A stretch of 64,000 nt of DNA, taken from assembly GCA_965153455.1 (NCBI GenBank), contig OZ234493.1, forward strand, positions 6,562,213 through 6,626,212, read 5' to 3'. This document shows positions 21,225-64,000 of the stretch, piece after piece. Both the position numbers and the translations under genes were made by a program. Within the stretch, counting starts at the first letter, position 1, and every line of letters begins with the position of its first letter. The stretch is from Sphagnum compactum (lineage: Eukaryota). The notes under the pieces are model-generated. The model ran no database searches. It was not told where the DNA came from and saw only the letters and a list, made by a program, of their open reading frames with translations.

Positions 21225-23300
21225 CCATGATTAGTTTTTTATTCAAAGAATTATTGTCTTCCTTCAAGAGGTCAATACCAAGTGACCCGCTCCCAACTCC
21301 TTGCGGGACTCAAATGTGAGTCCAAATAGAAAACAACGGAAGAGGAAGGAGTCGGGGCACGCTCCCTGGTTCGCAGCACTTTGGAAGGGTAGAGGGGCGT
21401 GCTGGAGCTTTGGGATGGGACTAGGAAGAATGAACAAGCATCAACTACTCACACGGACCTGCACAAAACCAACACAAAGTGGTTAATGCATAGTTGGAGC
21501 ACTTTTGGTGTTAGGACGAGCCACAGGCAACTCGGGCTCACAAGACTCACCACGGCCCGAACTTGGGGGAAGCCACCACCTTCCCCCTTATATTATACTT
21601 TGTGCCTCTCCGTGAGGCCCACATCCAAATAGCATTTTGTCCTAGGACTCCCAAGTGGGAGTCCCGAAATTGCCAAAGTTAGGATTCCTGCGACTTGGGG
21701 GCCCCATAACTTTGCGATCAGACCTCCGATTGAGATGAGGTCTCAAGCAAAGTTGTAGCCCTTGTCGAGAGCTTTCCAACGGTATGTTGCACGTCACCTG
21801 AACGCACCGAAATCAGGTCGACTCCTGACTTTAGTGGTCGAGAGTCAAACTGCCAATTTGACTCCCGACCCTTCTTTTGGCCATAACGTGTGTTTCAAAT
21901 GTTTAAATGGGTTATGCAAGACCATTTTAGACATCTACGTTCCAAGAGCTTTCCAATTATATAAGGAACTCTTCAAGCCATTGAGTTTTGACCCCTGAAA
22001 TTGTCCTCTGAAGGTTCAGGAGTCCACTAGGACTCCATCTCCCAAAGTGGGAGTTGCCTTGGGAGTGTGAGGGTTCATTCCCTCACACTTTCTTACACTC
22101 CCAGGAACATGCGGTGTGACTCCCGGCTTCCCTCTTGGCCCGTAACCTTGCAAACCCTTTGCCTTGGTCGCGAGCCCAAGGCTAGGGTTACAATAAAGTG
22201 GCATTTCCCTTATTAATAGACATTCATTCATCTTAGATGGACATGGATTTCATGTTACACTAGAAGCAATTGAACAAGCACAAACATTTGGGTTATACAT
22301 GATAACTTTACCTTCCCATATGAGCCATGCACTTTAGCCTTTAGATGTGGTTTGCTTCAAACCTTTCAAACAACTTTCATAAAAAAACATGTTGCAATGG
22401 TCAGTAACAATTACACAAAACTAAATAAGATAACCTTGGTTGGCTAGGTAAAGAAAGTTTTAAACTACTCCCTCACCAAGAAAAACATATTGTTAGGGTC
22501 TAGAATTGCAAGGATTTAGCCACTAAACCTTAATGCAATACATGAAAAAATGATCCCTAGTAGTTTGTACATAAGAAATAATATTACATAGAAGGAAAAG
22601 AATGCATATTCCATATCCAACAAAGAGGATGAAGAGGAGGATAATGATATCCAATGGGAAAAATAATATGCTACAAAAAAAACTTATCAATATAGCAGTA
22701 ATAACAATTCCTATACATCATGAATCCATAGTTGTTGGTGTTTCTGAAATTAACCTTAGGTACTATGTAGATGTGCCTACAAACTTTACAACCATAAATT
22801 AAGGAACTGCACTAAATACATCAAATCTAGTTGTGAACATAGATGAAGTTGCAATAGAAGTGGAGGTGGGAACTAAAAACTTCACCAATTCAACTCAACA
22901 AGTAGTTGCAAATGGTAATTTGTTCCCTTTGCCTCATTTGCTTACAAAAAAACTCAAGGCAAATAACTATTAGTTGATTATTCTCAAAATCGTGTAGTGA
23001 TTTCAAAAAAAAATTGAATATTATGTGATAGAATGCACTGAAATAGGAGGCAATAAAAATAATCAAGAAAGCTCCAAGGAAAGGAAAAGAAGAAAAATAA
23101 GTTAGGAGAGTTTGAAATTCATTAACTGTACCTACAAGAGTCGTTCGTTAGGAACATGAGAGAAAATAGAATTCATTTCAACTTGGTTGGCCAATGCAAT
23201 TAAAAGTGCAAGGGATAAGTTTCACTAGAACTTCCAAACTAGATTATGAACTACAAGGGTGTGAAATTTGGTTGCATGATAGATGCTCATAAATAGGCCA
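21225..23300 (+). pseudogene. pogo/Tc5-type DDE_1 transposase relic, interrupted by the 21283-22195 element
   Basis: Removing the insertion restores FKRSIPSGISLINRHSFILDGHGFHVTLEAIEQAQTFGLYMITLPSHMSHAL*PLDVVCFKPFK (LDGH and QPLD motifs). Downstream limit approximate. Confidence 0.8.
21283..22195. mobile_element. GC-richer ~913-bp interspersed element (solo-LTR-like)
   Basis: Sharp GC/CpG contrast with its flanks. Begins TGACCCGCTCCC and ends GGCTAGGGTTACAATA. Flanked by AAG (or AAGTG); excision restores the host transposase frame. Confidence 0.7.
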
Positions 23301-42550: not shown

Positions 42551-45500
42551 CCTTTCTGGGTCCATTCACAATGAGGTTACTGAAAAAAGGAAAAAGGATT
42601 CTAGGACTTTTGTAGAACTACTTTTTACAAATAACATTTACATGAAACAAATTCTAGTGAAAAAAATTGAATAATCCAATATAAGATAATTCATGTGGTG
42701 GTGGTGGTGACTTTTCACATGCATACATAATTGTGCATGAATATTTTGGTTTATAAACAAAAAAATAGAAAATGAAAAAATGGGATTCTAAAATCAATTA
42801 AACATGTTTTTTTACATTATTATTTCCTGCACATGTGACGTGCATCTAAAGCAATTTCTTTTTGAACCTAATGGATATAAAAAAACATCCAAATTATTTA
42901 ATAAAGGAATTGAAAATTTCAAGACCTTGAAATTTTCATGTGATTTGTTTTTATCAAATTAACATAATGAACATGTAGCTGGATAAAGGAACCATGTTCT
43001 TTTTATATAAAAAATTTGAAATCAATTGCATCATTTTATGCATTCCTTTGCATTCCCTTAACAAAAAATTGTAATATGAACACTTGATTCCTTTTGAGTC
43101 AAAGGACTCAAAAAAAGTTCTATACAACATCCAATTTGATTGTGGGATGTTTTTTATAATTTATTTTTTCAAAACTCCAATTGTAGGAACACAAAAATAC
43201 ACCATTGTTGTAATATATTAGACACTACGAAAATCTAAAATTGTTCATTAAGTCCTTTTTTAGTTAGACACTCATTTTTGGTACCCCAATTGTGAATGGA
43301 CCTTTCTTGGAATTTTTTTTATTATAAAGTTTGGCAAGGTTTCATCATTAGTCAATTATGGATCCCACCAAAAATATAAGTATCACTAAATAGTTCATTG
43401 GCAAGTTTTGGGTACTAAGTCACTAAAATAAACAAGCCGGTGACCAAACATTAATTGTCTCAATCACCTCCCTCTCATTCAATAGGCCTCCTTTCCACCT
43501 ACACTTCAAAAACAAAATATACACCATTACACCTACACTTTAAATGTACACCACTAGAAGCGCAATCATTGTCATTTAAATTGCTCAAAATGGGCCAAAG
43601 ATGAAGAAGATACACCCCTTCAAAGTTGGGGGGTAAAAATTGATATAAAAGAATGGATCGTACACATGGCAACCCAAGACGGTTTGTTTAATCACCTAAA
43701 ACTGAACAATCACTTGGGCATTAATGAACTAAATGCTACCTACTCCCATATTCAACTAGATGCAGATTTGAATGATCAACATTTTCAAAGAAAATGTTCA
43801 CTTTTGAACATAGGCCTCAAATCACATGCAACATAGGGCCTTTCCATCGCCAATAATGGGTAAACAATGGTTGATTCACCAAATTCAATGCTCCTATTCC
43901 AAATGTTTGTGTTTTCACCAAGTTCCACGCATCTACTTCTTAATTATGTTGTGAACTCCTGATTCCATCCTCCTTTGAGCCAAGGTTGCTATGAGTCACG
44001 GCATCTGTGTGTCTGTCACAATGTGACAAATGCATCTCAACACAAACGCACCTCTGCATCGCATTAGTATAGGGCCTAGTGATGACATTCTTCATTTTGC
44101 ACATTAAAATTCTTTAAAATTCTTCATTTAGCACCTTGTCATAACATTCTTTACCCGCGAATGTTTACCAAATTACACTGGTTGATCTATAAAATTCTTT
44201 AAAATTCTTGCTTCTTTGGGCTTCCATAACATTCTCGCACCAAGAATGTCATAACTATGGTATAGGGTCAGCCTAGGTCAACTTAGGATCTACCTAAGTT
44301 AAAGGGACTCTCAAGCTACCTGGACAGGCTTATGGGCAATCGAAACTAGGCCCATTTCAGTTTCCATAAAGCTTACAACAATGGAAAAATATCGGTTGCT
44401 ATAGGCTTGGTGACCGAAAAATTTTCGTTGCCACATGATTGGTGATAAAATGCTTTCGATTGCCACAAGCTTTTGTTATTGTTGAATACATTAATTATAT
44501 TAATCAAGCCTATTGCTTTTGTGTATAATGTTTCATTGATGGAAGGAAGACGGAACGTGTGAAGTCCATGGTATTTGATGCCAGAGGATAAACCAAGGAA
44601 GGTGGAATGTAAGTTTTGCGACAATGTTATTTTGTATTGCAAGGATAGAATGCTCTTCCACTTGGACTATCGATATGATAACAATGGGCAAGCTTGAGTT
44701 GCAACGTGTTCAAAGGCACATCCATGGATGAAGACACTATTTGCCCAATTTGGTGGACTTGTCCTTCCACCACTAAACGACATGGAAGTACTAGCCCATA
44801 TCTTGGATGGGCGAATAGAAGATGTGGCCATGGAAACGCTGAATCCTTCAATGGAAAAATAATCTACTTCAATGTCTCAAGTGGAAGGTGCTTGAAATTT
44901 CACCCCCCCTACAAACAACATAAAGGGTCCTAAAAAACCCACAAATAACACCACTCAAACTTTTCGACAGGTTTCATTACTTGAGGGATTGAATTCAGCC
45001 AAAAAACAAGATTTGGACAAGAAATGTGCAAATTTCTTTTATGAGGCGAACATCCCCTTTAGTGTTGTGCAACAACCAGCATTCATAGAAGCTATGAAAG
45101 CAACCTTCGAATCTCAAACCTATTACTAACCCCTATCACACCATGGATTGCGCACAAATTTGTTAAAGCAATTCAAAGTGGATGTGTCTAAATAAGTAAT
45201 TGAGAGGACACAAAATTCAATTCACAAATATGGAGCAACCATTTGTTTTGATGGTTGGGACATCGTTACATGACGTCCATTATTGAATGTAGTGCTTACT
45301 TGTCCAAGTGGCGATGTATTCATAAGTTCCATTGACACAACTGGGGAGCAAAAGAATGCTCATTACATACGTAATGCATTGGGTCGAAACATTGAAACCA
45401 GTGGAATCGACAACATTATACAAATTTGTACAGAGAATGTTTCGAGCATGATAAATGCAACTGACCTTCTAATCCATCATTTTCCAAGTCTTTATTTTCA

Positions 45501-46234
45501 ATGTTATGTTGCTCATTATCTGGACTTGCTATTGGAAGATTGGGAAAAACAACATGGGCGAAACAAATTGTGAAAAAATGTGAAAGTTGATGTTTCTTTA
45601 ATATGACAACACCATGTGCCACTAGCCACCTTTCGTTATTATGAAACCAACTTAATGCTACTAAACCCCACTAAAACATGGTTTGCAACCAATTTTTTAA
45701 TGGTTGAAACGTTGTTCAAGCTTAGACCAGCCATTGAACAAACTATTGTTGATCCTAATTGGACTATTTTTGTCAACTCATTACATGGCAGTTGTCGTTA
45801 GAAATTGCTCACCAAGGCAAAAGTTGTTTGAGCCAACATAAGGAGGGATGAATTTTGGGATACTTGTGCTAACTTTGTACACATGGTGGAACCGGTTTTA
45901 GTGTCATTGAAGGCATTTGATGGCAAACAACCTTGCATGGGGAGGTTGTGGCTTATCATGTAAACATTGGAGTGGCATGTTGTATCCTTACGAAATCCTC
46001 TGTTTACATTGCCATCAAACCTTGTAGATTTGATTGAAGATCAATTTTACTAGAAGTGGAAGATGTTGATAACTAACTTACATTATGCAAGGGCTTTTTT
46101 CAATCCATACTTGTTGGGTGGAGCTCACCTATATACAAGGAGGCCTTAAACAGAGTTTTGCGAAAAATAGTTTGTACCCCGACCACCTATGCCCTAGTTA
46201 GCTTTAAAAGATTTTACAGATTTTGTGAAAAGTC

Positions 46235-46547
46235 TGTTGAGAATTCAAGCTCAACTAGTTAGGTTTCTTTAGTTACTAGAGTAAGAAAGTAATTAGGTTA
46301 CTTTCACAAGGTTGAACTACGTTCTTTACTTATTTTAGTTTGGTTATTTGTGGTGTGGTCTTGTAGTTAAATACCTTGGTGTTGATGGTTTGGCTCTATT
46401 TTCTTCATTATACAAGTTTGTGTATTTCTTGTGACAAGAACCTTGGAGGGTTCTTGATGTTGTGTTTTGTGTTGTGAGCATTATGTTGTAGTTTCCTTTC
46501 AATAAAGATTTATGTTTGCACTTGAGTAGATCTCCTATTTGTTAACA
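46235..46547 (+). repeat. 5' LTR
   Basis: TGTTGAGAATTC...TTGTTAACA; contains AATAAA at 46501. Confidence 0.98.
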
Positions 46548-46559
46548 TGGTATCAGAGC
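46548..46559 (+). promoter_or_regulatory. Primer-binding site for tRNA-iMet
   Basis: TGGTATCAGAGC immediately after the 5' LTR. Confidence 0.97.
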
Positions 46560-47660
46560 TTAGGTTGTTTGGTGAGAAAGTTGAAAGAGATCTAGAGCTA
46601 GAAAGTCTCTAGAACTAGAGCTTGAGAGTCTCTAGTAATATCATAGGAGTTTGTCAAGTGCAAAAGAGAAACGGGGAAAGGAAAGAATGTGAAGAGAAAG
46701 AAAAGAAAAGAAAAAAGGTGAGAGGATATCAACATATCAAAGTTGTGGAAGTCAGATCTTTAAAGCTAGATCTAGAGCTACTGTGAAAAGATCTTGGAGT
46801 GAAACTTGGAGAGGTTGTAGAAGACTATAGGACGCTTCTATTCTCAAATTTTCAAAAAAAAAGGATATGTTTTGTGAGAGTTATGAGCTTTTGAAAACTC
46901 TGTGCCAGATCTGGTTTTTTGGTCATATCTCCTTTGTTTGAGCTTTTTTGGATCTGCAGCTTTGGGATATTATAGATCATATAGGAATATATGTGTGAGA
47001 GAAATTTCATGTCATTTGAATCTATATTGAGAGAGATCCAAGCATCTGAAGTTTCAGTCTCAGTTTTGAAGTCAATTTCTTTTGAAAGTGATATCTCTTT
47101 GTTGTCATCATCAATAGAGCTGAAATTTTGAGCAGATATAGAAGACATATATCTTATGTGTCTCCCAAAATCTCAAGGATTTTGGAGTTGTTGAGAGCGA
47201 GTTGTAAGTCATTTTGTGTTCAGGTCCCAGTTTGAGGTGACTTCAAGGAAGTAGCAAGATCTCTCAATTTATGAAGTTAAATGAGCTGAAATTTTGAGAG
47301 AAGGTAGTAGACATAGTGTTCTATGTTTCACCAAAATTTTAAATCGATCCAAGGTCATATGTGTGTGAAGTAGCTTTGCAAAGTTGCTGTGACAGAAGTT
47401 TGTTTTGAGAAGACACCAAAGCAAAGTTTTGAAGTGGAGCAAATACAACTTGGGAGAACTTGAAGGAAGGAGTTTGAAGATTGGGAAGCGCAAATACATT
47501 ATCAAGACCTTCGTACAAAAGTGTGGTATGTAATCATGTACTTAATACCATACGAAATATTATTCGAGGTACGTACCTATACGTAAAACCTATGTATAGT
47601 ATAGAATTTCGTATAATACTCAAGACATACATACATATGCAAGGTCTATCTTGTTCAGCC

Positions 47661-47720
47661 TTAACCCTAACCCTAATCCTAGAAACCTAAGGAAGGAAAA
47701 CCCTAACCCTAACCCTAGAA
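47661..47720. repeat. Telomere-like (AACCCT)/telo-box cluster in the copia leader
   Basis: TTAACCCTAACCCTAATCCTAG...AAAACCCTAACCCTAACCCTAG, ~60-120 bp upstream of the gag ATG. Confidence 0.7.
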
Positions 47721-47783
47721 ATCCAAGGAAGGAATTAAAATCATTTTGAAACCCCAAAAAGACATTGAGAGTTGCCTTGAGAG

Positions 47784-50700
47784 ATGGCAGATAATCTTTC
47801 TCAAATTGCAATTGAGAAATTGGACAAGAACAATTTTCAAGTGTGGAAATTTAGGATTATGAATTTCTTGATGGGGAAAGGTTATTGGGAATTCATAACT
47901 GGTGATGAGACAGAACCTCCTCTCCTAGAAAACCCCACACAACAACAAATTCAAGCCAATAAAAGTTGGCATGAAAAAGCAAGGAAAGTCTTGTATTGGC
48001 TTTCTGTGAGTGTGTCTGATTCCATGATTGTGCATATTCAAGATGCACAATCACCCAAGCAAGCTTGGGATACATTGGTGAAAATGTATAGCACCAATAC
48101 ACAAGCTCGTAAAATGCAGCTCAAACAAGAGTTGCATAATCTATAGAAAAACAAGATGAACATCAGTGACTATTCTACAAAGGTGAAAAACCTTGCAGAT
48201 GCTCTTGCATCTATAAGAGCCCCTTTAGATGATGAAGATCTAGTGGCCGTGACCTTGAATGGACTTGGAAAAAACTATAGTCAGTTTTGTACCTCAATTG
48301 CAGTTCGAGAAACATTTCCCGATTTCCAAGACCTAATAACCCTCCTTATAAGTGAAGAAATGAGAATTGTTGGTACCTCATCCAATGGAGGATCACAAGA
48401 GAGTGCCTTCTACTCAAATTCTAATAGAGGTAGAGGTAGAGGTGGTAAAACTTCATTTCGAGGTCGACACGGAAGCTTGCATGGTGGACATCATCAACAT
48501 GAAGGTCAATTTCATGGAGGTGGACGAGGAAGCTTTAAAGGAAGAGGAAGTCGTGGAGGTCGCGGTGGAAGTCATCGAGGTCAACAACCAAATAGCGACC
48601 CATCGAGGTTACTACTGCGGGAAACCTGGGCACATGGCAAAGAACTGTTATCAAAGGGAGCATGATGCACGAAATGGAAAACTGCAACAAGGGAATTATG
48701 CATCAACTAGCAATCAAGGTGACGAACAACTGTTTGTGATGCAGCACATGGCAAATTCAATGATAGGAGGTGTATCAGATAACAATGTCTGGTATGTGGA
48801 TTCTGGAGCTTCAAACCACATGACTAGCCATGGAGAATGGTTTAGAGACACAAGGGATTTGAAGACACCAGGGTTTGTGGAAACTGGTGATGACACTAGA
48901 CACCCCATCACACAAATTGGCAAGGTGCCATTGTCCATGCAAAATGGGCAAACAAAATACCTGAAAGATGTACTTCATGTTCCAACCATAACAAAAAATT
49001 TGGTCTCCGTAGGCCAGATGGTGGAACAAGGTTTACAGGTGACCCAAATGGATGTTTTGTGGAAGACATGAAGAACCAAGGCAAATTGATTACAAAAGGG
49101 GAAAAGAATGGACGAATGTTCACCTTGGATGTGAACATGCCTGAGGTGAATTCCATGTTATTCACACATGGAAAAGGAGCTGGAGACATTGGAATTTGGC
49201 ACAAGCGGGTTGGCCATGTTAATCTCCAACGTCTTAAGCTGATGGAGAAACAAAATCTTGTTGGAGGTCTTCCCAAATTTGGAACAGAAGAGGTGATGTC
49301 AGAAGTTTGTGAAGCATGTCAATTGGGGAAGCAAGCTAGGCATCCATTTCCAGCTCAAACAACTCATGTAAGTTCCAAACCTTTGGAAATGATCCACTCA
49401 GATGTGTGGACCACGAAGACAGAATCCATTGGAGGATGCAAGTACTACGTGAGTTTCATTGATGACCACACAAGGAAGGTGTGGGTCTATTTCATGAAAC
49501 ACAAAGGTGAAGTGTTTCAGCATTTTTTGAACTTCAAGGCAATGGTAGAGAAGGAGAAGGGTGTGAGCATCAAATGCCTAAGGTCTGATGGAGGGGGAGA
49601 ATATTTTTCAAATGAATTCAGTGAGTACTTGAAGGAGCATGGAATTCAAAGGAAGTACTCATGTAGTTACTCCCCACAACAGAATGGAGTTGCTAAAAGG
49701 AAGAACAGGCACATTGTAGAAATAGCACGTGCCATGTTGAATGAAAAGAACTTGCCAAATTACTTTTGGGCTGAAGCGGTAGCAACAGCAGTCTACATCA
49801 TGAATCGAACACCCACAGCGGCAGTTCATGGCATGACACCTGAAGAAAAATTCACAGGCAAGAAACCCGATGTTTCACACCTCAGAGTGTTTGGTTACAT
49901 TGCATACGTGCATGTTCCTGATGAGAAGAGATCAAAACTAGACCCAAAAGCTGAGAAATGTATCTTCATTGGATACTCCTCAGAACAAAAGGGATATAGA
50001 TGTTTTAGCCCTTCCACTCGGAAGTTGCAAGTGAGTACAGATGTTGTGTTTGATGAGATGGTTAGTTGGTACTCACCATTGAAGGTAGCAGAAGATGAAG
50101 AAGCTAGAAATGGTGATGTTTCATCAAATGTGGAACAAGAATCACAATTAATTAGTGGACCACAAGAGTCTTCAATTAGTGGGTCCAGTAGCATTCCATG
50201 GAAAGGAAGATTAAGATCTTCAAACATTGTACATGGTAGTTCACAAACATCATCTAGAAATTCTCATGTAGATGGTGAATCAAGTGAGTCAGAAAAGAGT
50301 GAGGGTGAAGAATCAAGAATCACCTCAATTACTACTCCTGGAGCTCGGATGGTCAAGAAAGCTTTGAAAACACCTGACAACAACATTGGAGTACGAAGAT
50401 CCACACGAGTCAAGTACCCTATACAAAGACTCACATATGATGGCTTTGTAGCTCATCATTACGCATACATGGTGAGAGTTATACAAGAGGTTGAACCCAC
50501 TTGTTTTGAACAAGCGGTTGGAAATCCTAAGTGGGACAATGCCATGGATGAAGAGATGGCGGCTTTGGATGCGAATGCTACTTGGGAATTGGTAGCTTTA
50601 CCAAAGGACAAGAAAGCAATTGGGTGCAAATGGGTGTACAAAGTCAAGCACAATGCAGATGGATCTTTGAGCAGATACAAAGCAAGATTGGTTGCCAAAG

Positions 50701-52064
50701 GTTATGCCCAAACGTATGGCATAGACTATGAAGAGACCTATAGTCCAGTTGCCAAAATGACAACTGTAAGAGCAATCATTGCTATGGCAGCAACAAAAGG
50801 ATGGTCTTTACATCAAATGGATGTAAAGAATGCTTTTCTTCATGGAGATTTACAGGAAGAAGTGTACATGGAACAACCACCAGGTTATGTGGACCAAACA
50901 CATCCTAATTTGGTTTGTAGGTTGAAGAAAGCTTTGTATGGCTTGAAGCAAGCACCTAGAGCTTAGTCAGACAAGATAGGTCAGTATCTTGTCACAAGTG
51001 GATTTCAAACATCCAATGCAGATTTTTCACTATATGTGAAAAAGACAGATCATGGGATTGTAGTCATAGTCATCTATGTTGATGACTTGATTATCACAGG
51101 AGATAGTGATGCAGACATCTCTGATTTGAAGAAGCTTTTGAAGCAAAAGTTTGAGATGAAGGATTTGGGAGAGTTGCGTTATTTCCTCGGCATTGAGGTA
51201 ATCCATTCCCCGAAAGGGATATGGTTACTACAAAGGCAATATGCCTTGAACAAATTGTCCGAATATGGGATAACGGGTCGTAAACCCATTTCAATTCCAT
51301 TGGAGCAAAATGTGAAGTTGAGTGTAGATGAAGGAGACCTCGTGGAGGATACCACTATGTACAAACGCATAGTGGGGAGTTTGATTTACATGACCATCAC
51401 AAGGCCAGATTTGAGTTATGCAGTTGGAGTGGTGAGTCAATTCATGCAAACACCATGAAAGCCACATTTGGATGCAATGAGGCGCATACTGAGGTACATA
51501 AAACATACCTTGCAATGTGGAATTTTTTATGAAGCCAAGAGCTAGTTACAAGTACATGGATACACGGATGCTAATTGGGCTGGCAATGTTTCAGATAGAA
51601 AATCAACTAGTGGTTTCATGTTTTCTTTTGGAAGTGGTGCTGTTAGTTGGAGCAGTAAGAAACAACCAACAGTTGCATTATCAAGCACGGAGGCAGAATA
51701 CAGAGGTGCAGCAATTGCTGCATGTGAAGTAGTTTGGTTACAAAAACTACTCTCAGATTTGGGACAGTTAGTGGATGCTCCTGTTGTCATCTATTGTGAT
51801 AACATTAGTAGCATACTACTTGCTAACAACCCGGTCTATCATGCTAGGACAAAGCACATTGAGGTGCACTACCACTTTATTAGAGAAAAAGTTCTAACAA
51901 AAGAAATTGACCTTATTCATGTCAGTACTGAAGATCAGGTTGCTGACATTTTCACAAAGGCTTTAGGTACAGACAAGCTAAAGAAGTTTCGAAAAATGCT
52001 TGGTGTACTAGAAGTGGATTTGAGCTTGAGGGGGAGTGTTGAGAATTCAAGCTCAACTAGTTAG
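47784..52064 (+). pseudogene. copia gag-pol polyprotein, disrupted
   Basis: Gag KLDKNNFQVWK; knuckle CGKPGHMAKNC; protease WYVDSGASNHM; integrase [44 protein letters not shown]; RNase H YTDANWAG, YCDN, ADIFTK. Stops at 48144, 50964, 51456 and 51543; frameshifts near 48600 and 49043. Confidence 0.97.
52028..52036 (+). promoter_or_regulatory. Polypurine tract
   Basis: GAGGGGGAG abutting the 3' LTR. Confidence 0.93.
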
Positions 52065-52349
52065 GTTTCTTTAGTTACTAGAGTAAGAAAGTAATTAGGT
52101 TACTTTCACAAGGTTGAATTACGTTCTTTACTTATTTTAGTTTGGTTATTTATGGTGTGGTCTTGTAGTTAAATACCTTGGTGTTGATGGTTTGGCTCTC
52201 TTTTCTTCATTACACAAGTTTGTGTATTTCTTGTGACAAGAACCTTGGAGGGTTCTTGATGTTGTGTTTTGTGTTGTGAGCATTATGTTGTAGTTTCCTT
52301 TCAATAAAGATTTATGTTTGCACTTGAGTAGATCTCCTATTTGTTAACA
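52037..52349 (+). repeat. 3' LTR
   Basis: Copy of 46235-46547 with 4 substitutions. Confidence 0.98.
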
Positions 52350-53589
52350 AAGTCGAGGTCCATTTTCTGACACCCCCCTAGTGAAGGACCTAGACTTGTT
52401 CCCACACGAGTGGTGAGATTGATTGGAGCTAGTGGATGCACATTTGCACCCATCACCCATTGCATTTTGGTGCAAGTGTGTCTCGCATCATCATGCGAGT
52501 GGAATTGGAGTTCATATTCATTTGTCCATAACAAAGTGTGAAATCAATTAACATCGAGTCGAACGGAAGACCTGGTGTACATATACACTTAATAGCAAGC
52601 TCTTGTGAGAACAACTTGGCACCAACCCCACAGCATGGTATGAGAAAAATATGGTGTTTGAAGATTCAATGTCCAATGTTGATGAAATTGTAAATGAAAA
52701 CAATTCATCAGACAAAAACCCCACAACGTCAAATAAGTGGGATGAGGATGAAATCGAATATGACCCCTTTGAATTCCCTCATGATGATGAGATCCATTTT
52801 CAAGATTGTTGTCTGATCTGATGATTTGGCATGTTCAAGGGTCTAGCAATGGCAATGCAAATCCAAACATGCCATTCTTAGACAATGATGTTCAAGTGTC
52901 TGATGCACCCCCCGCATGTTGTACATGCTATAATAGCCCTAAGTCAAGACACGTCCATGCAATCAATGAGTTCCATGGAAGTGGACCCTTCAATTAGTGC
53001 AAACACACCATTAGCTTAAATCATCATTCCAGAGCCGGATGCACAATAGACACTAAATAACACTTTAGACATACAAATGGACCCACTCATCAATCTTCCA
53101 AATATTGTAGTCAATGACATTGGGGATATTACATTAAAACTAGGTGTGGGCCCGCGTATGATCACTAACATAGGTGCACCCCAAGTTGCGGATCCAAGTC
53201 CTTCAAGTTTTAAAACTTCAAGACCAAAGAAGTTAGCAGAAGGTGATTCAAATTCTAATCACACACCAATCAACTAGTACTTATGGCGTCCAAGACCCCC
53301 GATACCCAAAGTGCCAATGGGTCAAGACTAATCATTATGGCAGCTTCCATGAATCATCTTCCGCCAACTATTGAAAACTTGTCCACATGTTGAGTTACCT
53401 AAGGGAAAAGGCCTATTGTTCAAACAACAATTATTTTTGTTGGTGAACATAATTATGAACGACCACACACTGATGATGGCATTTTCAGTATTGAGGGACA
53501 GCGCCCCACCAAACAAATCATGACAAAATGTTAAGGTTGAAAATATCATCAGAACCTTGTGTGGGATAGACACTTCAGAAGTAAAGGAG

Positions 53590-54900
53590 TGTGAGGCGAC
53601 TTTTTATCCCTCTACTCCCGGCTCTACAAGGTGACTATACTTGAAAGCATAAATGCTATCGGTGAAGGACAAATGCAAGTGTATTTCTAGATGTTAGATT
53701 GCGTTTGTAGTTGAGATCAAGTAGCTTGCGTCCTATGCATTATTTACGATTAGAACTAATAAATATATTTCCAAGCTCAAACATTCCAAATCTTAGAATT
53801 TTATGTCAAATTGTCATTCATTTAAACTAATTTTTAAGGACTCAACATTATGTTCAACTTACCTGCAGACCACTAGCCACTTGAAATATTGATTCTAACA
53901 CATAAGTTATCCAAATCCAGCTTGCCTTAGCTCTTTAGAAAGTTAACTACAAGATGCACCTTGCTACCAAATCCTAAGCTCTGCAACTAAACTAGTTAAA
54001 AGTTATGCCACAAAACCCGAAAGGGTTTTACGAAGGTGGTAAATTCAACTTGGTTGCAGACCACTAGTCACTTGAAATATTGTTTCTAACACATAAGTTA
54101 TTCAAATCTTTGAAAACTTGTTCATACAACTTTTCTTAAGAAAAGAAGAATGATTAGTTTTAGTAGATGGTAGAAAGAGGGAGAATAGATTGGATGATAA
54201 TAGTACCTTTCAAAGGGATGGAAATGAATAGGGGTAATTTTAGGAGCTTGAAATTTTAGAGGTATTTCACAAGACCTCTCGGGTTTTGTAGCATAACTTT
54301 TTCTTAATCTAGATGTAGAACTTGACAGTTGGTAGGCAAGTGCACATTATAGATAACTTTTCAATGAACCAATGCAAACTAAATTTGAATAGAGTATGTG
54401 ATGGTAACAATGTTTTAAATGATTAGAGGTCCATTGTCAAGTTGAGCTTTTTGCTTTCGTGAAACCCCCTTGGGTTTTGTGGCACAACTTTTTATTGATC
54501 TAGGTGCAGAGCTTGAGATTTGGTAAGCAAGTGTGCTTTATAGCTAACTCCAATGAACTAATGTAAGCTAGATTTGGATAACATATGTGAGGGGAATAAT
54601 GTTTTGAGTGACTAGAGGTCTGCTATCAAGTTAAACATATTGTCAAGTCCTTAGAAGTTAGTTTAGCTGGGTGACAATTTAACATAAAATTCTAAGATTT
54701 GGAAAGTTTGAACTTAGGAAATATATCTATCAATTCCAAATCATAAAGATGCATAGGAGGTAAACTATTTGTTTTTAACTACAAATGTAATTTAATATCT
54801 AGAGATACACTTTACATTTTTCCTTCACCAATAACATATGTACCTTCGAGTATAATCACCTCATAAAACTAGGAGTAGAGGGACAGAAAGTCACTTCATA
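53590..54900. mobile_element. Foldback element: ~520-bp forward arm and ~800-bp reverse arm of one repeat family joined head-to-head
   Basis: TGTGAGGCGACTTTTTATCCCTCTACTCC at the left end vs GGAGTAGAGGGACAGAAAGTCACTTCATA at the right; similarity runs the length of the left arm; junction ~54105; no TSD visible. Confidence 0.85.
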
Positions 54901-56089
54901 ACCACTCATATGTGGCGATTAAATTTGATCGCCATTCAATATTATTGATTAAATTCGGTTGTTATTGGATGGCGGTTATGAATTTCGATCGTTGTAGATG
55001 GATTTGCTAACATTTTCAGTTGCCATCTAGGAACCATTAGATGGCGACCGAATTTGTCTTAGCCGGCAGATGACAATCAATTTTTGAAATAAGTATTTTC
55101 AAGGTTTATGAGTTTTAAAATGCAATCCATGATTCATTTTTTAGCACCTATGTTCTCATTTGGGTTTTGTGTTTTTGGTTGCTCCCTTATAATGATTACA
55201 TGGAACCTTGGGGGTGAGTTGAGGTGATCAAGTCCCGAGTAAAGGGCTATCTTTTTCGCATGTTGCGAATGTTTTAGACCACATTAAACCTTGACTTTTT
55301 AAGACTTGAAAAGACTTTTGGTTTTTCATCATCCAAAATTTGAAGGATGTTATAAAATGGATATTCGAGGAGACAACCATCGGGTAGACCATTGTCGAGT
55401 GTTCAATTTGACCAAAACCCCCAAAAAACAAATTATCCCACACATCATTTGGGACTTACCCCCCAGACCTTTGAGCAGCCCATCTTCAACCATGCACAAA
55501 TGAAAGGCTATAGAAATGTTTGATGAGGAGAACACTTCATCGACATAAACTCGAAATCATCAAAAGCCTGAAGACAATCATCCTAAAAGAATCGCCACAC
55601 GATAATTCCAAGAAAGTATCATGACATTTTTTACAGAGCACACAATGGCATATCTCAACAATGTTTTTGTGAACAAGCAAGGAAGTAGCTTGAAGAAGTA
55701 TAATCAGGTCATGGAGCATAAGTTTTTGGCAAAACTAGACAAATCCTCGCAATACACCAAGTTTTGGATTTTCAAAGAATTTCTGGAATCGTTTGAATGC
55801 AAAATTTCGAATTTAGCCACAAACTTGTTGCAATGGTTTAATGTCCTTTATCCACAAAAGGACAAGGTGCACTAGACCATGGAGGTGGTGAACTTGTGGG
55901 AGAAAATTTCATGTTGGACCAAATTTTTGAAAAATTGGTCGAAAAAAAAAGGTGAGGTTTACACCATGGATGGAAAAAGGCACTTAAAACCTTCTAGCCC
56001 AAATTGGAAGCCATGGTGTGTTATGAATTCTAAGCATAACAAATGTGCTCCCATTGTTGAGTAGAGATAATCAAGGTGGTTATGGTGTG

Positions 56090-56529
56090 GGGTGCAGTCA
56101 TGTTAATAGGAGTTAAAAGCAATCATAACCACAACTTAATTATGTGTTTTTTACACCAAATTTTTTATAAAAAATTCTAACTTGAAAATACATTAAATTT
56201 TTTACACATTATCAATCTAATGTCTTATTCTAGAAATCTCCAAAATATGAAATTATTTCATTAACATTTGGACCTTCAAAAGTAATGTAAAAAGACTTGT
56301 AACCACTGTTATTAAATAGTAAAAGGACTTGTAAATGGACTTGGAAAACTTTGAAAATGACATATTTTTTACAAAATTTTAATACAAACCTTCACAAAAT
56401 AATACAAAGAATTTTTTGAAGATTTTTTCAGATTTTGTTGAAGATTTTTTCAAAAATATTCCAAGAATATTCCCTAAAAAGCAGTCACCTAAGGGAACAC
56501 TAGTGGCTCCTATTAGCCCGTTTGCACCT
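56090..56529. mobile_element. GGG-terminated MITE (440 bp) inserted in the kinase Gly loop
   Basis: TIR GGGTGCAGTCATGTTAATAGGAG / CTCCTATTAGCCCGTTTGCACCT; 4-bp TSD TGTG (56086-56089 / 56530-56533); excision restores GGYGVV in frame. Confidence 0.88.
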
Positions 56530-56953
56530 TGTGGTGTGCACGGTGCGAATTGAAAGATTGGATCACATCCCAAGCACAATTGAATTGATAGGAAAAACAT
56601 CGAAGACATATGACAAGCAAGAAACATGTAAGCAACAATCAATGGAAACTTTGGCATGCCCGTGCAAACATCCAGGTGTCATCAAATTCCTTGCCATCCA
56701 CACAGAAACCACGGAAACATACACATTGTGGTGGAATGGGGGAACTTTTCGAAAAATGTTGGATTACAACACGAAGTATTCCCCCATTACTAATAATCAT
56801 ACCTTATTGTGGCAAGGGGGGCTAGATATGGAACGGTGAACAGAACTTGTCACCTTTAGGCAAAATCGTGTGAAGTTTGCATGGGCATTCATAAACCTTA
56901 TGAATGTAGTACATCATTGTGAATTTTTGCACAACGACTTGTCTAAGGATAAT

Positions 56954-59900
56954 GCAACTTAATGAACCAACACTAGTTAGCAACATGATGGACTAACAAT
57001 AACACCAACAACATAGGGGGTAAATGGTGAAGGAGGGTATTTGGTACCGAGAGGTGTATAACAATGTGATGGACTACCAACTCACCACTTGCAAGGTGAT
57101 GGCAATGGGGGTAATACCTCACCAAAACACATGTAATGAACATGCAACGAAAGTAACAACCAACAATGCAAATGAACAACAACATCAACACATGGGGGAA
57201 TCGTTCATGTGGGTATTTGGGAGCGTGACAAACACTAGCAATGTGATGAATTAACACCAATAATGCAATAAACTAACATTTATACTAGCGATGCCATAAA
57301 CCAATAACAACATCAACAACACCATAAATGCCAATTTTGAATTAAAATTTTGGCTTGACCAATGTGTGAAAAACAACTGCAAAGCTTGCTTTTATGGCCT
57401 ACCAAACTATACTCTTATAAACTGCATTCTTTTTATCAAATTCACTTTGTGTTCAAAATTACTCAACCATGTTACAGCATTCCATCAACTTTGATGATTT
57501 GGTTTTAACTTGGCATAAAAGGCAAAGTCATTCCTTATTTAACATCTAAAGGTTGAATCAACTTGATATGATGTGAGTTGGTGGATGGTTTCATGCGAAC
57601 CCTACATGCAACTACTACAAGGTCCAATGACATCCACCCAAGTCAAGATCTCAAGAAGCTTTCTTCATAATGGGCAATGTGGGCACATGATTGAAGTCTC
57701 CTACATTTCTTACAAAATAAATAATGACAACATGTGAAGATTGTAACCTATTCAAGGCTTGCCCAACTACCTATCTAAGAGGCCCAAAGGTGTATTTTGG
57801 GAAAAACTTGTACACTACAAGCTACGATTGTTTTGGACCAAAGAGTGGAACTCTATGTGAACTACCTAACATGCCATTTTGATACACTCAACATATTTTT
57901 AATTCATATTTGGTCATATGGCAATGCAAGCATCAGATCTAGCAAGTGCTATCATCCTTTTATGTTCTTCTTGTTGTAGGAAATGGGTAAATATGGGGTC
58001 TTCTTAAGGAGGTAATCCTTCAAATGATCTATTTACTAGTATAACATGTAAATTTGGGTCAAGATTGGGATTTTTACCCTGGCCCATGTGGGTGACTTGT
58101 GCTAAATTTGAGCACCACACTACCAATGATGATCCATTATTTTATCTCTTTCTTATGTTTTCATATGGTTTTCAATAATTCATCATTATTTGTGTCAATG
58201 ATAAATTTAATTTAAATTACTATACATTTCATGGACATGAAAAGACACATTTTAATTTTTTTTCATGTCCATGCTGGTGGATAGGGAAAAAAGTGAGGTA
58301 GTTATGAAATGGAACTAGTTTTTAAAAAAGGTGGGAGATAGTTATTAAAAAAATTAATAAGAAATGGTAGTTATTAAGAAAAAAAATGAAATAATTAAGT
58401 TTGAAAATGAGGTAGCTATTTTTTTAAATTGTTTTTGGAATGATCTATGGACAACCATACGAAGGATTCCAAAAAATCCCCCATATACCAATTTTGATTA
58501 ATTGTTACTAGAATTACTTATCACTGGAATTTGTGTAGAGATGTTTAGATAGCCAAGTCTTGTAAATCAATGTCCTCATGGATACAACAACCATGCCATG
58601 AAATGATGATTTTATCTAAGAAGGACTTATTCACTAATGAAAGCAAAATATTTTAACTAGCATAATTTGATGAATGATGTACTTTGAAACATTTTGTGAT
58701 GTAGTTGAAATGGTGATCATCCATAAGACACTTTTGCCTAATTTGGTTACACACTATATATGAAAATAAAAAAAGCCCAAACCCTTCTATATTTTAGCTA
58801 CCTATTGGAACTTATCACGAAAATCTTTTCCTTCAAGTTCTATTGAATTTGGGCCATATTTTTCATTAAAATTTTGTTGTATAGGTCAAGTTGAAAATTT
58901 GCAAAATTTCATTTAAAAAAAAAACCATTGTAGTTAGCTCGTCTTGGTATGATAGATGGTAAAGACTAGGCTTATTTAGGTATGTAACTAAAAATTAGGA
59001 ATAAGCATGTATGTGTGTGAAATGAAGAAATTTCAACAAATGTGGATGATGGAAATTGAAGTGATGAAATTTGGGTTTGAGAAATACCAATGCTGTGTCT
59101 TTTGATCTCTATGTTTTCTTGTTCATTTGTTGATCATGAACAAGTCTGAAGGTCCAATTGCAAGCAAAGCATGATGGAATTGCAATAAGGCTTCAATGCA
59201 ATGAAGGTGAACATTACGAGTGTGGAGTTTTGTGGGCATGTTTCTTTTCAATTTTTGGCAATATAAATATGTGTAAAGGTTGCAGATATTTGCTTATTTA
59301 TGAGATGCACCTTAAAGCTCGGTGAGTGATTGAGGATAATGGAAAATAAGAACAAGAACTTGGAGATGAGGAGGCTAGTTCCTTTTGGGTGAAAAAGAGC
59401 TAAGTGATTTGTGTGTTATGCATAAGAATAGTAAAGCTTTTACTTTCTAGAAGGATGTTGTCTATGTTGTTTTCTTGTTTTGTGTGAAAATTTGTGATGG
59501 CTTAATACAATTGCTATGACTTTTTTTCTATTGTGTATAGTGATCCTTAGTGGCCATTGTGAATTCTATAACCACCATAATGTATAAATCTAATACCAAG
59601 GAGATGATGGTAAAAAATAGGAATTTTGGGCCCAAATGAGTTTTCACTTTAGTGGCAATGGGTGAAAGCACACTAAGCCCCCCCCAAAATTGTATTCACA
59701 CATATAATCTTTCTGCAATTAGATTTTTTTAATAATGTATCGACATCACATCTTGGATTATTTTTGTTTGTTTTAAGTATATTTGATTAGCTTTAAACTT
59801 CATCTAATCAGTTATTTTGAAAAATTCAACAAACATTGAAGAATTTGAACATATGGAGTATATTCATGACCGAAAAAAACTTGTCACAATGTTTGAGATT

Positions 59901-61289
59901 TTGAATATATACTTCAAAAATAAGGTTGTGGATGGAATTCTTGGGTGAATTATTTTACGGTGTATGATATTGATATACATCAATTAAATCTAGGAGAGTT
60001 TAGAAATTAAAAAATTTTGGATGAAATTCCATTCAAAAAATGTTTTGTTTTGCATTTGTTTAATAATGAATGAATAATAATATTTTTTTAAAGAAAAAAT
60101 CACTACCATGTCAAAGAGTAGGAGATTTTATAGATGAGCATTGCATTATTTTTTCAATTTTATTTTGTTTGGTAATGTTTCATGAATCATAAACATAAGG
60201 CCCTATGGTTGTAAGTTATATATTCTATATACATTGATTTTATCCAATCCTCCTCATCTAACTGTTGGATCGAAATTAATTTTAGATCAAAATGAACTTT
60301 GAGTTCAAAAATGTTGTTGTGCAAATTTTTAAGTTCTTTTGCTTTTATTTAGGACAACCAAAGGATGCTATCAAGATTTTAGCTTATTGCATATTATACT
60401 ATTTGTTATACATCACCTTTTTAGAACAAAAATGGCTCACCTTTAGTGTGTTTTCACCTCAATGGTAATACCACATTCTAGCAACATCAACTCACCTTAT
60501 TATTTATTACTTGAAAATATTGTGAAATGGTGATTGTTGACAATGAAACCCAATGTGGTGGGTTGGGATACATGAGCAAGGGTTTGGAAAATGTTGGAGG
60601 ATCCAATAATGAAATGCGATATGTTGTAAAAATTGGAATGAAATCTCTTCATAGTGAATTTGGTGAAGCTTTCAATGTTTGTTGTTACTAATTTTGTCAT
60701 GGAATGTTGGGTTCACCAACATGGGAATTAGAAAATTGAAATCTTTATTGTTTATAATTGTTGGTGGTGAATTAGACATTGAAGGAATGTAGGAAATTAA
60801 GGGAGGCTCAAAAAAGGATTGATATGATTGATCTATTTTGAATTAGTAATAAGACCATTGTTTGATGGACACAAAGTACATGGAAATAAAATGTTGGATA
60901 AAGTGTGGTTTTTCATTTATTGCAAGGATGTTTTTTTGGAATGTTAATTAATGCAATATTGTACACCATTAGATTCACAAAATTCATAATCTTTTGAGGT
61001 TTTTTAGTTAAACCATCTTAGTTTAATACATTACTACAAAATGTGTGGACAAACCATTACAGCCAACCACCGAATTTGACTTTGGGTGGTCTTCACATGA
61101 CAAAAATCATTCACGACTTTTTTGAGTGGGCAAATCCTACAAAAACGAACCAACATTAACATTAACAACACAAAGTACCAACAACACCATAAATGCGATG
61201 AACCAATAATAACACCAACAATGCAAACAACCGACAACAACACCAACAATGTAACAGACCAACAATACAATGAACCAACAACATCAACC
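56954..61289. mobile_element. ~4.3-kb composite insertion in the kinase catalytic loop, with AAC/CAA-rich degenerate repeats at both ends
   Basis: Interrupts HNDLSKDN|IMLHF; AACAACACCAAC-rich tracts at ~56954-57330 and ~61140-61289; no TIR or TSD resolved. Confidence 0.65.
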
Positions 61290-62239
61290 ATTATGTTGCA
61301 TTTTCTAGCAAACAAACCAGATGTTGTGTACATAGGCGTGTGCAAATAGAATGAAGTCAGGCGCTTGTAAGAGGTGATGCCATCATTGTATGGCTTTACA
61401 AAAGAACAAGGTGCCACCAATGCAAAACAAATGCATTGGTGGGTTTCCCCAGAATTGTTTTTTGTTTACAACGAATCAGGAATTGCAAATTCCTTGACAA
61501 ATGGCCAAGCAACATGGTACAGCTTTGAGGTTTGAAGCATATTTGGTGGGTAGGTTGGCAAATGTCATATGGGGTGATGATTGGGATGCAAAATATTTTT
61601 TGGACAATTCAACCAAGATGTCATTTGGGAAACTGATCCATGACATGTATGACCCAAATCCGAAGGCACAAAGAACTATTCAACACATTGTGTGCACATT
61701 GATGGGGCCTCCATACAATTAGACTGCATCTGAAGAGTGTTATCAAAGACAACCATAAACAATTTGTAGTTACTAGTTTTACATGATGTGGTGTAATTTG
61801 CATGATCTTTCAAAATGACATGTTTTGGATTTGTGGATTTTATAAAACCCAATTTTTGATCGCTGTAGGAGTGGCAACCAAAATCCATTTTTGGTCACCA
61901 ATCATAATGGGGATACCCCAAGTATGACCAAGGATTTTCCTGCATCCATCTTGACGAACGTGTCAAGATAAGACGTCGATGTGACGCTTAACACAAAATG
62001 GGCACATCATGTTTGTTTTGACAACCTTGTTTTGAGCTTGAATTTTTCCTCTTTGTCTCCTTTCAAAAGGTTTAAAGAGCTCTTGATCACCACCTTGATT
62101 GTGTTTTTAATTTGATCATCTTTCTCACGTTATGAGTTCTTGATCTTTGGGCAATATGTGTTGTGATCTGAACCTTTAGTGGTTTAGTGTTATGAGTTTA
62201 TTAATATCTTTAGTAATCTTGTGATGGTGGTAGTTGTGT

Positions 62240-62945
62240 GTTGTGCACTTTTGAAATTAAAACATTTTTCTCCTTTGTATTAGGTGTTGTTTTTTCTGGT
62301 TTCAATGTTCATTTCTCCTCTCTCTTAATTATTAATTTCTTTGCTCTTAATTCTTCTTTCTTAGCTGCTATTATTTTTTATGCCGCTTTTAACACTTCTC
62401 TTTCCTCTTTCTCCTCTCTTTTCACTCATGACGTCTCTTTCTCCTCTTTCTCAATTAGTGTTTTCTCCACTTTCAACACTTCTATTTTGTCTTTCTCACA
62501 TGTTGTTTTTCAAGCTCTTGACACCTTTCTCCTCTCTCATAATTACTAGTGTTGGTCCTTCCTTAAGTTGGACACCTTTTTTTCCACTATTGTTATTGGT
62601 CCCCTTTCCAAGTTCAATGCCTTTTTCTCCTCTCTCAGTTTTTGTCGTTGGTCCTTTCCTTTCTTTGAACTATTATTGGTCCTCTTTCTTGGAATTCAAT
62701 GCCTCTCTTTCCTCTCTCACAGTTGTTACCATAGATCCTTTTTCCTTTCTTAACACCTCTCCTTCCTCTTTCTCAGCTTCTAGTATTGGTTTTCTTAATC
62801 TTCTTTCTCAATTGTTATTATTAGTCCTCTTTCTTCTCTTGATCGACCTTTCTCAACTGTTGTTGCTAATATTTTATCCTCTTTCAATCCTCTCTCATCT
62901 ACTGATGTTGGTCCTTTTTTTTATCTCTTTCAAACCTTTAGTCAA
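62240..62945. repeat. Pyrimidine-rich low-complexity repeat
   Basis: Repeated TTTCTCCTCTCTCA(A/G)TT(G/A)TT units. Confidence 0.65.
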
Positions 62946-64000
62946 CTAACTAGTTACTTCCTTTTCCTTTAATCATTGGAAAATAACAAGCTTGTTGTTC
63001 AATGCCTTTGTGCTTACTACCTAGCCTATTGTTGAACCCATATTGTGTAGTTTAGATTCATGCCTTTGTAATTGTGTTGATATACTCACAAACCTATTTG
63101 AAAATCATGGTGAAAGTAGTCACCCACTTCAATTACAATTGTTAGAATCTAAGCTACAGTGAAATATGTTCTAACACAATTTTCATCAATTTTTTTCAAA
63201 CTATTCAATTTGCTGTAGAATTGATCAATGCACATATTCATTTGGCTCATTTATTTTCCTTATCCTTTTGTTTTCCTTCTCTGATTTCCTCTGCATTTTC
63301 CTTTTCCATTTCTTTTCTCTTTAGGATATCTAGGTATTCAAAACTAGTCACAAGATGTGACTAAGAATAATTGATTAATAATTTTTCCCTTTTTGTACGT
63401 CTTGCAAGTAAATGAAGTAGTGATAATAGGTTATGCACCCTCATGGATTCCTAGGTTAGATTTGGAGACTATTGGGTTTCTTGCAGCAAATTTTGAGTAT
63501 CTTCAAAACTATCCTCATTTAGGTTTACAACATTAATATCTTATGATAGTTGTTTTATCATCATAATGCTTTGAGGTCTATTTACATAATAATGTTGGTT
63601 ATTCTTTAGCTTGTAGGTAGATAGATCTTCAGATGTTGGATGTTGAGATATTTTAACTATATGGAAAAAATTCATAGCAAAAGATTCCTTCCCCCCTTTT
63701 TTGATTATTCTTAGATTCCTCTTCTGTTGTGTAATCTTCTTCATTTCTTGCATTTTTCGTGTTTGTTGCAATATAAACCTCTGATGGTTAAGTCTTGCCA
63801 TACATAGCCTTTGAGTTGAAAAGCCATATACATATATTTAAAACCCAAACTTGATGTTTTATTCTAATTGATTACTTTAACACCTGATCTATCCATCCAG
63901 TTATAATTATCTTGTTTAGTTCCATGTAATCGCTTCTAGACATAATTACAACCCTAAGTTTTTTTAATGTTATTTTAAAAGGCTTGAACAAGACACATCT

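Follow-up and report, generated by a model that had tools for sequence, protein, structure and literature searches.

Members of the hAT transposon superfamily normally carry a single gene; Ac, for instance, encodes its transposase only. DNA transposons that carry two genes are known as well, like MuDR (mudrA and mudrB), En/Spm (TnpA and TnpD) and PIF/Harbinger (a transposase and a Myb-like protein), and so are Mutator-like (MULE) and CACTA elements with ULP1-like proteases. None of these is a hAT, and none of their accessory genes is known to encode a protein kinase. Here we describe an element at positions 43981-62029 of a 64,000-nt stretch of Sphagnum compactum DNA (contig OZ234493.1, positions 6,562,213 to 6,626,212 of the forward strand; hereafter the window), in which the relics of a hAT transposase gene and of a protein kinase gene lie on one strand between ends that act like true transposon termini. 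We lean towards reading this region as one old and inactive copy of a hAT of the DUF659 clade that moved as a single unit and that had the kinase as a resident second gene.

With MuDR, En/Spm, PIF/Harbinger and the MULE and CACTA elements the locus shares the combination of a transposase and a second, apparently resident gene between the same ends. With Ac/Ds-type hATs and macrotransposons it shares the 8-bp target-site duplication, short ends that start with CA or TA, the occurrence of internally deleted derivatives and of composites that move by their outer ends, whereas its transposase differs from that of Ac in belonging to the DUF659 clade and in having a long disordered tail. The kinase resembles FunK1 (Pkinase_fungal, PF17667) in that both are lineage-specific, highly paralogous and divergent kinases in repeat-rich DNA. 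Membership of FunK1 itself was considered and rejected: of ten proteins only P0025, a full-length relative of the window kinase, gave a match, a weak one around the catalytic loop with E 0.0093 and 15.2 bits (cut-off 24.1).

An additional gene within a hAT has been described in Dothideomycetes, where DUF659-type elements of Pseudocercospora fijiensis and other species carry copies of histone H3 and are for this reason unusually long (~9.5 kb), with 20-bp ends and an 8-bp duplication (PMC6710886). The fungal hATs and the present one have a DUF659 transposase, short inverted ends, an 8-bp duplication and an extra intronless gene amplified along with the element in common. The fungal gene is a recognisable housekeeping gene that was captured from a transcript and is inactivated in P. 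fijiensis, whereas the gene found here belongs to a deep and divergent kinase family with conserved catalytic residues, for which we found no host donor, and occurs in a plant-like host. No report of a kinase-encoding hAT was found in the literature searched (subscription journals, Repbase and supplementary files lay outside the search).

Termini and copies of the kinase unit

Metagenome contigs were scanned with the alignment of the kinase family, which yielded 34 loci. L030-L034 were set aside as unrelated kinases (24-33% identity, mostly of high G+C), and many of the 29 loci that remained show 70-88% DNA identity to the window. The kinase gene proved to belong physically to a repeated unit with the 3' terminus of the element as its end: in six distinct related copies, each with a different flank, homology stops exactly at the equivalent of position 62029 (L003/L004, L005/L006, L018, L021, L022 and an inverted fragment in L013). 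These copies share the right terminal sequence ...TTTTGACAACC(T/C)T(G/A), and the bases that follow are unrelated in every one of them. Because six copies stop at the same base with unrelated flanks, we take 62029 to be a true transposon end.

The two junctions of the window copy, read directly, are CTTTGAGC (43973-43980) followed by CAAGGTTG (43981-43988) on the left and CAACCTTG (62022-62029) followed by TTTTGAGC (62030-62037) on the right. The perfect 8-bp inverted ends and the 8-bp duplication (7/8) by which the preliminary description had delimited 43981-62029 are thus confirmed. The ends follow the (C/T)A(A/G)NG start rule of hATs, with CAAGGTTG at both ends and identity at nine of 11 positions when the next three bases are included (the ungapped match ends after 8 bases), and the duplication has the 8-bp length that is typical of hATs. 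Taken alone, inverted ends and duplication are weak, since the window contains 86 perfect 8-bp inverted-repeat pairs with an 8-bp flank match of 7/8 or 8/8 (mean of 42 in a Markov simulation), among which one with a hAT-like start was observed against 0.43 expected. They become strong once the right end is validated independently: in the window only 4 plus-strand CAAGGTTG sites occur and 63 of the 63993 positions lie within one mismatch of TTTTGAGC, so that, given the right end, the chance of a left partner with such a duplication is small (p about 0.004). This left partner is located 558 bp upstream of the first aligned transposase codon. As the duplication pairs a hAT left end with the right end of the kinase unit, both genes appear to have been transposed together at least once.

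Other candidate boundaries did not hold. Within 52800-64000 no end-like sequence was paired with a matching duplication. The CAACCTTG that L006 has in its transposase tail (GAACCTTG in the window, 53552-53559) is part of the coding frame, and 6 of the 8 bases that flank it differ from the left duplication. A possible left boundary near position 1793 of L013, common to L006 and L022, lacks a duplication, and the sequences of L013 and L018 continue beyond it. Comparing the left end, with gaps allowed, to seven right ends gave a mixed result (0 to 56 of 500 shuffles reached the observed score), and counts of short GTTGCCA-type motifs were not convincing.

Copy number, age and decay

Raw reads from a run that bears the species label of the window were placed at 80% likeness. 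The left flank had a depth of 3.9 and the right flank one of 1.8. Between 43947 and 62062, nested insertions left aside, depth ranged from 8 to 66, with values of 13-36 in the transposase bins, 8-28 in those of the kinase and 28 at the 3' end. At the bin boundary 43946/43947 it rose abruptly from 3.9 to 66, and at 62062/62063 it dropped from 28 to 1.8. The region 43947-62062 is therefore multi-copy between single-copy flanks, with the kinase at about the copy level of the transposase.

In the divergent run X8 a contig spans from the left flank into the element, i.e. the insertion was already present there. Together with contigs of X9, which cover the single-copy part of the 4.3-kb insertion described below at about 4% divergence, this indicates that the whole structure is old. 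Differences between copies over 43300-62700 were dominated by C>T and G>A in four runs; the run of raw reads had 822 and 944 such places, against 500-584 for the reverse transitions. Such an excess is expected where methylated cytosines in silenced repeats undergo deamination.

In the window copy both genes are inactive: each contains stops, and the copy is interrupted by a Copia element, by a small element with inverted repeats and by a 4.3-kb block (Table 1). The extent of decay is comparable, with stops in 21 of 720 codons of the transposase and in about 6 of 357 codons of the kinase. That the kinase would be far more decayed than the transposase was considered and rejected, as the relatives show that the entire kinase family is remote from the Pfam model.

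The transposase pseudogene

Translated from 43981 with stops read as X, the transposase frame matched Pfam DUF659 (PF04937) with E=1.2e-26 and 93.7 bits, against a cut-off of 34.7. Its relative P0001 (47% identity over 549 aa) aligned by tblastn with aa 1-534 on 44539-46155 (E 2e-149) and aa 564-698 on 52354-52770, segments that flank the Copia element and thereby show that the gene was split by it. The hAT dimerisation domain PF05699 was not detected by Pfam in the frames of the window. The region may nevertheless be represented by 52419-52589, which is 70% identical over 57 aa to the part of P0001 that carries PF05699, and by a match of the family profile (E 6.9e-14; Table 1). In a search among longer proteins, 20 long relatives (802-1167 aa, the best 53% identical) were found, of which all 20 contain PF04937 and 19 contain PF05699. 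The stops are distributed as 16 in the 565 codons of the first part and 5 in the 155 codons of the second.

The relatives have a disordered tail of ~340 aa, first acidic and then basic, which is rich in serine and has a conserved C-terminal motif; the window keeps this motif near 53440-53530, in another frame. The preliminary description had spoken of a complete degenerate hAT transposase. It is a hAT transposase and it is degenerate, but it is not complete, as the last ~36 codons, judged by comparison with L006, are gone after 53589.

The kinase pseudogene and its family

The kinase was not recognisable by standard means. At E<=1 there was no kinase Pfam match in the six frames of 52355-62040 (stops read as X). 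Comparison with the sequences of solved structures gave only a 29-aa match to the catalytic loop of BUB1 (E 1.4), and none for the C-terminal piece. Once the insertions were spliced out, one frame running from about 55925 to 61560 showed motifs like those of kinases, arranged in the expected order. The 140-aa piece 56534-56953 was used for an exhaustive HMMER search, which yielded 181 proteins (clusters) at E<=1e-3; of these, 89 reached E<=1e-10 and 11 reached E<=1e-30, and many of the relatives are 500-650 aa long. One of them, P0025, aligned collinearly by tblastn to 55943-56086 (aa 180-227), 56534-56953 (49% identity, E 1e-40), 61266-61634 and 61498-61749, its last residues falling near 61755, and the family profile matched the N-terminal domain at 55606-55872 (E 8e-6). 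The collinear alignment and the family search bear out that, as described before, an intronless kinase relic lies downstream of the transposase on the same strand. The region upstream of the gene is found in other copies too, by blastn from 54920 in L017 and L022, from 54976 in L005 and L006 and from 55031 in L013.

Of ten full-length relatives, all matched Pfam Pkinase (E 2.5e-15 to 1.2e-6, 28-57 bits) and seven reached the cut-off of 31.7 bits; the low scores of the whole family explain why the decayed window copy escapes Pfam. In an alignment of 18 relatives (25-56% identity) the G of the glycine loop, the ATP-binding K, the E of helix C, H-N-D and the D-W of DWG are invariant, and the N of the catalytic loop and the G of DWG are each kept by at least 90% of the sequences. 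HND thus replaces HRD and DWG replaces DFG in this family. In an AlphaFold model (mean predicted local distance difference test score 81.4), residues 50-176 form a helical N-domain and residues 205-524 the kinase domain. A fold search with it retrieved at least 500 solved kinase chains at E<=1e-3; as these are only 15-20% identical and led by FGFR2, RET, JAK3 and PINK1, the family seems to have no specific close relative among solved structures. Through its relatives and the modelled fold, the relic can be placed in the eukaryotic protein kinase superfamily. Intact members are predicted to be catalytically complete proteins of ~520 aa with a basic N-terminus, a helical N-domain and a divergent kinase domain. 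The window copy retains the HND...N loop and has stops and at least 2 frameshifts (a single stop in the 140 codons of 56534-56953); a stop at the DWG position implies that it is dead.

The kinase is more than an isolated host pseudogene, being a member of a large family of intronless genes whose copies share the 3' terminus of the element. Its apparent role as a long-term resident of the hAT lineage, and no chance passenger, is suggested by sequence conservation. Selection appears to have maintained it, since its catalytic residues are conserved throughout a deep family and many reading frames are intact. Apparently the family has not been described before. In the library searched it was seen only on metagenome contigs, in assemblies of public runs and in a few metagenome-assembled genomes labelled as bacterial, and no relatives of the transposase or the kinase were found on viral contigs. 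A public database lists P0020 (a DUF659 transposase fragment) and the kinase-family proteins P0220 and P0221 under metagenome-assembled genomes with the label 'Bacilli bacterium'; these entries are most likely eukaryotic contamination of the bins. The window itself is A+T-rich, eukaryotic DNA packed with repeats, and one related contig was observed to carry a reading frame with a WRKY domain, a plant marker.

Nested insertions and an internal deletion

Table 1. Coordinates of the features of the element and its flanking duplications within the window
Feature	Start	End	Strand	Evidence or remark
Left target-site duplication CTTTGAGC	43973	43980		read directly; 7/8 identical to 62030-62037
Left terminal inverted repeat CAAGGTTG and 5' subterminal region	43981	44538	+	9/11 with right end; depth jump
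hAT transposase pseudogene, part 1 (zinc-finger-like N-terminus, DUF659, catalytic core)	44539	46234	+	Pfam, tblastn, profile
Nested Ty1/copia long terminal repeat (LTR) retrotransposon	46235	52349	+	99% identical LTRs; frames for gag, integrase and reverse transcriptase
Transposase pseudogene, part 2 (probable hAT dimerisation region 52371-52538, acidic/basic tail)	52355	53589	+	cut off at 53589
1.3-kb element with 87-nt inverted arms at internal deletion junction	53590	54900		arms 53592-53678 and 54812-54898
Region upstream of kinase gene	54901	55482	+	common to other kinase copies from 54920 onward (blastn)
Kinase pseudogene, N-terminal helical domain and start of kinase domain	55483	56089	+	profile, P0025; start extrapolated
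Nested ~444-bp inverted-repeat element (resembling a miniature inverted-repeat transposable element), ~7-8-bp duplication	56090	56533		absent from 13/13 spanning loci
Kinase pseudogene, N-lobe to catalytic loop (HND...N)	56534	56953	+	P0025 aa 229-368
4.3-kb composite insertion splitting kinase directly after catalytic loop	56954	61289		absent from 13/13 spanning loci
Kinase pseudogene, activation segment to C-terminus	61290	61758	+	P0025 aa 361-522; one frameshift near 61500
3' subterminal region and right terminal inverted repeat (...TTTTGACAACCTTG)	61759	62029	+	homology of other copies stops here
Right target-site duplication TTTTGAGC	62030	62037		read directly

Four nested insertions had been proposed previously; the Copia element, the 444-bp element and the 4.3-kb block stood up as such, but 53590-54900 is no clean insertion, since it lies at a deletion junction and lacks a duplication. 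The Copia element has the 5-bp duplication AAGTC at 46230-46234 and 52350-52354, and contigs of the runs X1, X8 and X9 join 46109 to 52419, i.e. are without it. The 13 related loci that lack the 444-bp and 4.3-kb insertions represent about 9 distinct ones. In contigs of X1, X8 and X9 the corresponding joints are 56094 to 56650 and 56896 to 61525, and L018 connects 56953 with 61290 base for base. No inverted ends or duplication were found at the 4.3-kb insertion (56954-61289). Part of it (58828-59474) is a single-copy bin with a depth of 2.2 that the material with the X9 organism label covers at about 4% divergence, which indicates that the insertion is composite and older than the split from this second organism.

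The arms of the element at 53590-54900 are 77% complementary, and no duplication was found to flank it. L006 is homologous to the window up to 53589 and then continues with ~36 further transposase codons and a stop, codons that the window does not have, and from 54920 on, within the kinase's upstream region, the window is homologous to kinase copies again. We also observed collinear blocks of ~70% identity upstream of the kinase in L006 (6387-8340), L021 (3643-8133) and L029 (5185-8526). Because these middle blocks and the continuation in L006 occur nowhere in the window, the window copy has an internal deletion that removed the last ~36 transposase codons and a multi-kb middle part. Consequently, the ~5.8-kb core of the preliminary description does not represent the full structure of the family and is an internally deleted derivative. 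The shared blocks gave no match to Pfam, and the neighbouring reading frames belonged to no family bearing on the element; L021 has an open frame of 198 aa at 7617-8210. The blocks may represent a third gene that has gone unrecognised, or else regulatory DNA of the full element. At 61856/61857, which lies between the stop of the kinase and the 3' subterminal region, about 670 bases present in L003, L006, L013, L018, L022 and L028 are missing from the window copy.

One element or two

The same layout of both genes was found in L006, where the C-terminus of the transposase is followed about 9 kb further on, on the same strand, by a kinase unit with the right end; identity to the window is 75% in the transposase part and 74-81% in the kinase part. 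The notion of a two-gene hAT family put forward earlier is borne out in so far as both genes lie between real ends and L006 repeats the arrangement, but the layout cannot yet be called the rule. Several findings indeed weigh against a single element with a resident kinase. By tblastn none of the 34 kinase loci contained a transposase, in an unfiltered profile search L006 alone did, and about nine of the ten distinct kinase loci with 5-10 kb of upstream sequence show no transposase remnant. L035, a distant transposase locus on genome contigs, has no kinase in the 4.3 kb downstream. The gene-gene junction of the window copy is rearranged. In the kinase loci searched nothing consistent was found that could be a left end or target duplication of another kinase copy, and since no other copy gave both ends, the 8-bp duplication was seen in the window copy only. 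Beyond about 11 bases the left end of the window copy is unlike the right ends, and the similarity of the 5' and 3' subterminal regions was not above chance (the observed score was reached by 20 of 300 shuffles and by 43 of 300 real-sequence controls).

Several of these findings, namely the many kinase loci without a transposase, the likeness of the two ends over 8-11 bases only and the junction, which is a deletion filled by the 1.3-kb element without flanking duplication, as well as the inverted right-end copy that stands alone in L013, would suit an origin from two elements. The kinase unit would then be a separate repeated element (a non-autonomous relative or a member of another family) beside a 3'-truncated hAT, and the composite would have moved once by its outer ends (macrotransposition) or have arisen from neighbouring insertions and a subsequent deletion. 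Against this, the duplication joins the hAT left end to the right end of the kinase unit with the low chance probability given above, L006 has the same order and strand at about 75% identity, and no left terminus of a kinase-only unit was found in any locus. Moreover, flanks of 10 kb are perhaps too short to reveal a transposase, because the genes of L006 lie ~9 kb apart, its upstream blocks recur in L021 and L029 and the DNA is riddled with insertions. Taking both routes together, we consider a two-element origin rather unlikely, if still to be reckoned with.

A different possibility is that a hAT captured a retrocopy of a host kinase (transduplication), which then decayed as useless cargo. 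The gene is intronless and located between the transposase and the 3' end, the ~9.5-kb fungal hATs with H3 copies and an 8-bp duplication provide a precedent (PMC6710886), and the low-G+C loci, the close relatives of the window, are all pseudogenes with no reading frame of at least 250 aa. We nevertheless judge this improbable. A deep family (25-56% identity) keeps every catalytic residue and a conserved N-domain, and many of the 83 kinase relatives at E<=1e-10 are full-length reading frames. A recently captured gene would resemble its donor, which disfavours recent capture: a partial test, against solved structures and Pfam (annotated plant proteomes lay outside it), returned no close non-family kinase as a host donor, solved kinases being 15-20% identical and Pfam scores 28-57 bits. 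It is more improbable still, to the point that we give it hardly any weight, that the kinases form a fast-evolving multigene family of the host that is not transposon-borne, with segmental duplication accounting for the shared downstream sequence. Such an origin could explain why L013 and L018 share ~440 bp past the point where L006 and L022 diverge, but not that the homology of six copies stops at the same base, at a hAT-like terminus with unrelated flanks, that in the window copy this terminus is paired with an inverted end and flanked by an 8-bp duplication, and that the depth boundaries coincide with the ends of the element.

Possible role of the kinase

In the preliminary description it was suggested that the kinase may serve as a regulator of the transposase, as an anti-silencing factor or as an effector or toxin. 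If the region is indeed one hAT with two genes, a cut-and-paste element would have encoded a transposase and, between this gene and the 3' end, a separately read intronless kinase. The kinase would be transcribed as its own messenger of ~2 kb and would work in the nucleus on the acidic, serine-rich tail of ~340 aa of the transposase, thereby favouring transposition; alternatively, its targets could be repair or silencing factors of the host. It counts against this scheme that the messenger is hinted at solely by the lengths of the contigs that hold intact members, where many intact kinases come from contigs about 2 kb long and transposases from contigs some 3.3-4.4 kb in length. None of the 20 long transposase relatives has a kinase domain and none of the 83 kinase relatives (E<=1e-10) has a transposase domain; no fused protein turned up among the longer candidates either, which is weak evidence. 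We propose only tentatively, and with some doubt, that an old hAT lineage encodes its own divergent but active kinase, with a dedicated helical N-domain, that is needed for movement or aids it, perhaps by phosphorylating the transposase tail or host proteins.

If this holds, it would be the first case of a cut-and-paste transposon of eukaryotes with an accessory gene of the kinase type. A lineage with a second enzymatically competent gene would put a kinase on the short list of transposon accessory proteins and would offer a direct handle on the control of transposition by phosphorylation. There is also a consequence for annotation: several database sources already label members of the family as host 'serine/threonine kinases', so genes that are probably mobile DNA risk being named as host genes.

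Other observations

No further copies of the element were found within the window. At 15600-15618 the sequence TAAGGTTGCTATGAG matches 14 of the first 15 bases of the left end of the element (CAAGGTTGCTATGAG type), and could be what remains of the left end of a further member of the family; neither a partner end nor a duplication was found for it. A repeat of ~900 bp (21290-22189) recurs near the kinase units of L003, L007, L017, L021, L022 and L029, in both orientations and with 72-81% identity, and appears to be a common small mobile element of the lineage.

The contig of L010 (7738 bases, 44% G+C) has an intact kinase reading frame of 558 aa at 5056-6729. With L001 and L008 it belongs to the loci of 43-46% G+C, whose composition suggests a different organism. 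Upstream on the same strand lies an open frame of 364 aa (683-1774) that matches no Pfam family, and clusters of CGGACG-type motifs occur in inverted orientation at about 390-520 and 4830-5080. Directly outside the right end of the window copy, 62300-62950 consists of T-rich tandem-like repeats of 84-96 bases with an A/T skew of -0.33.

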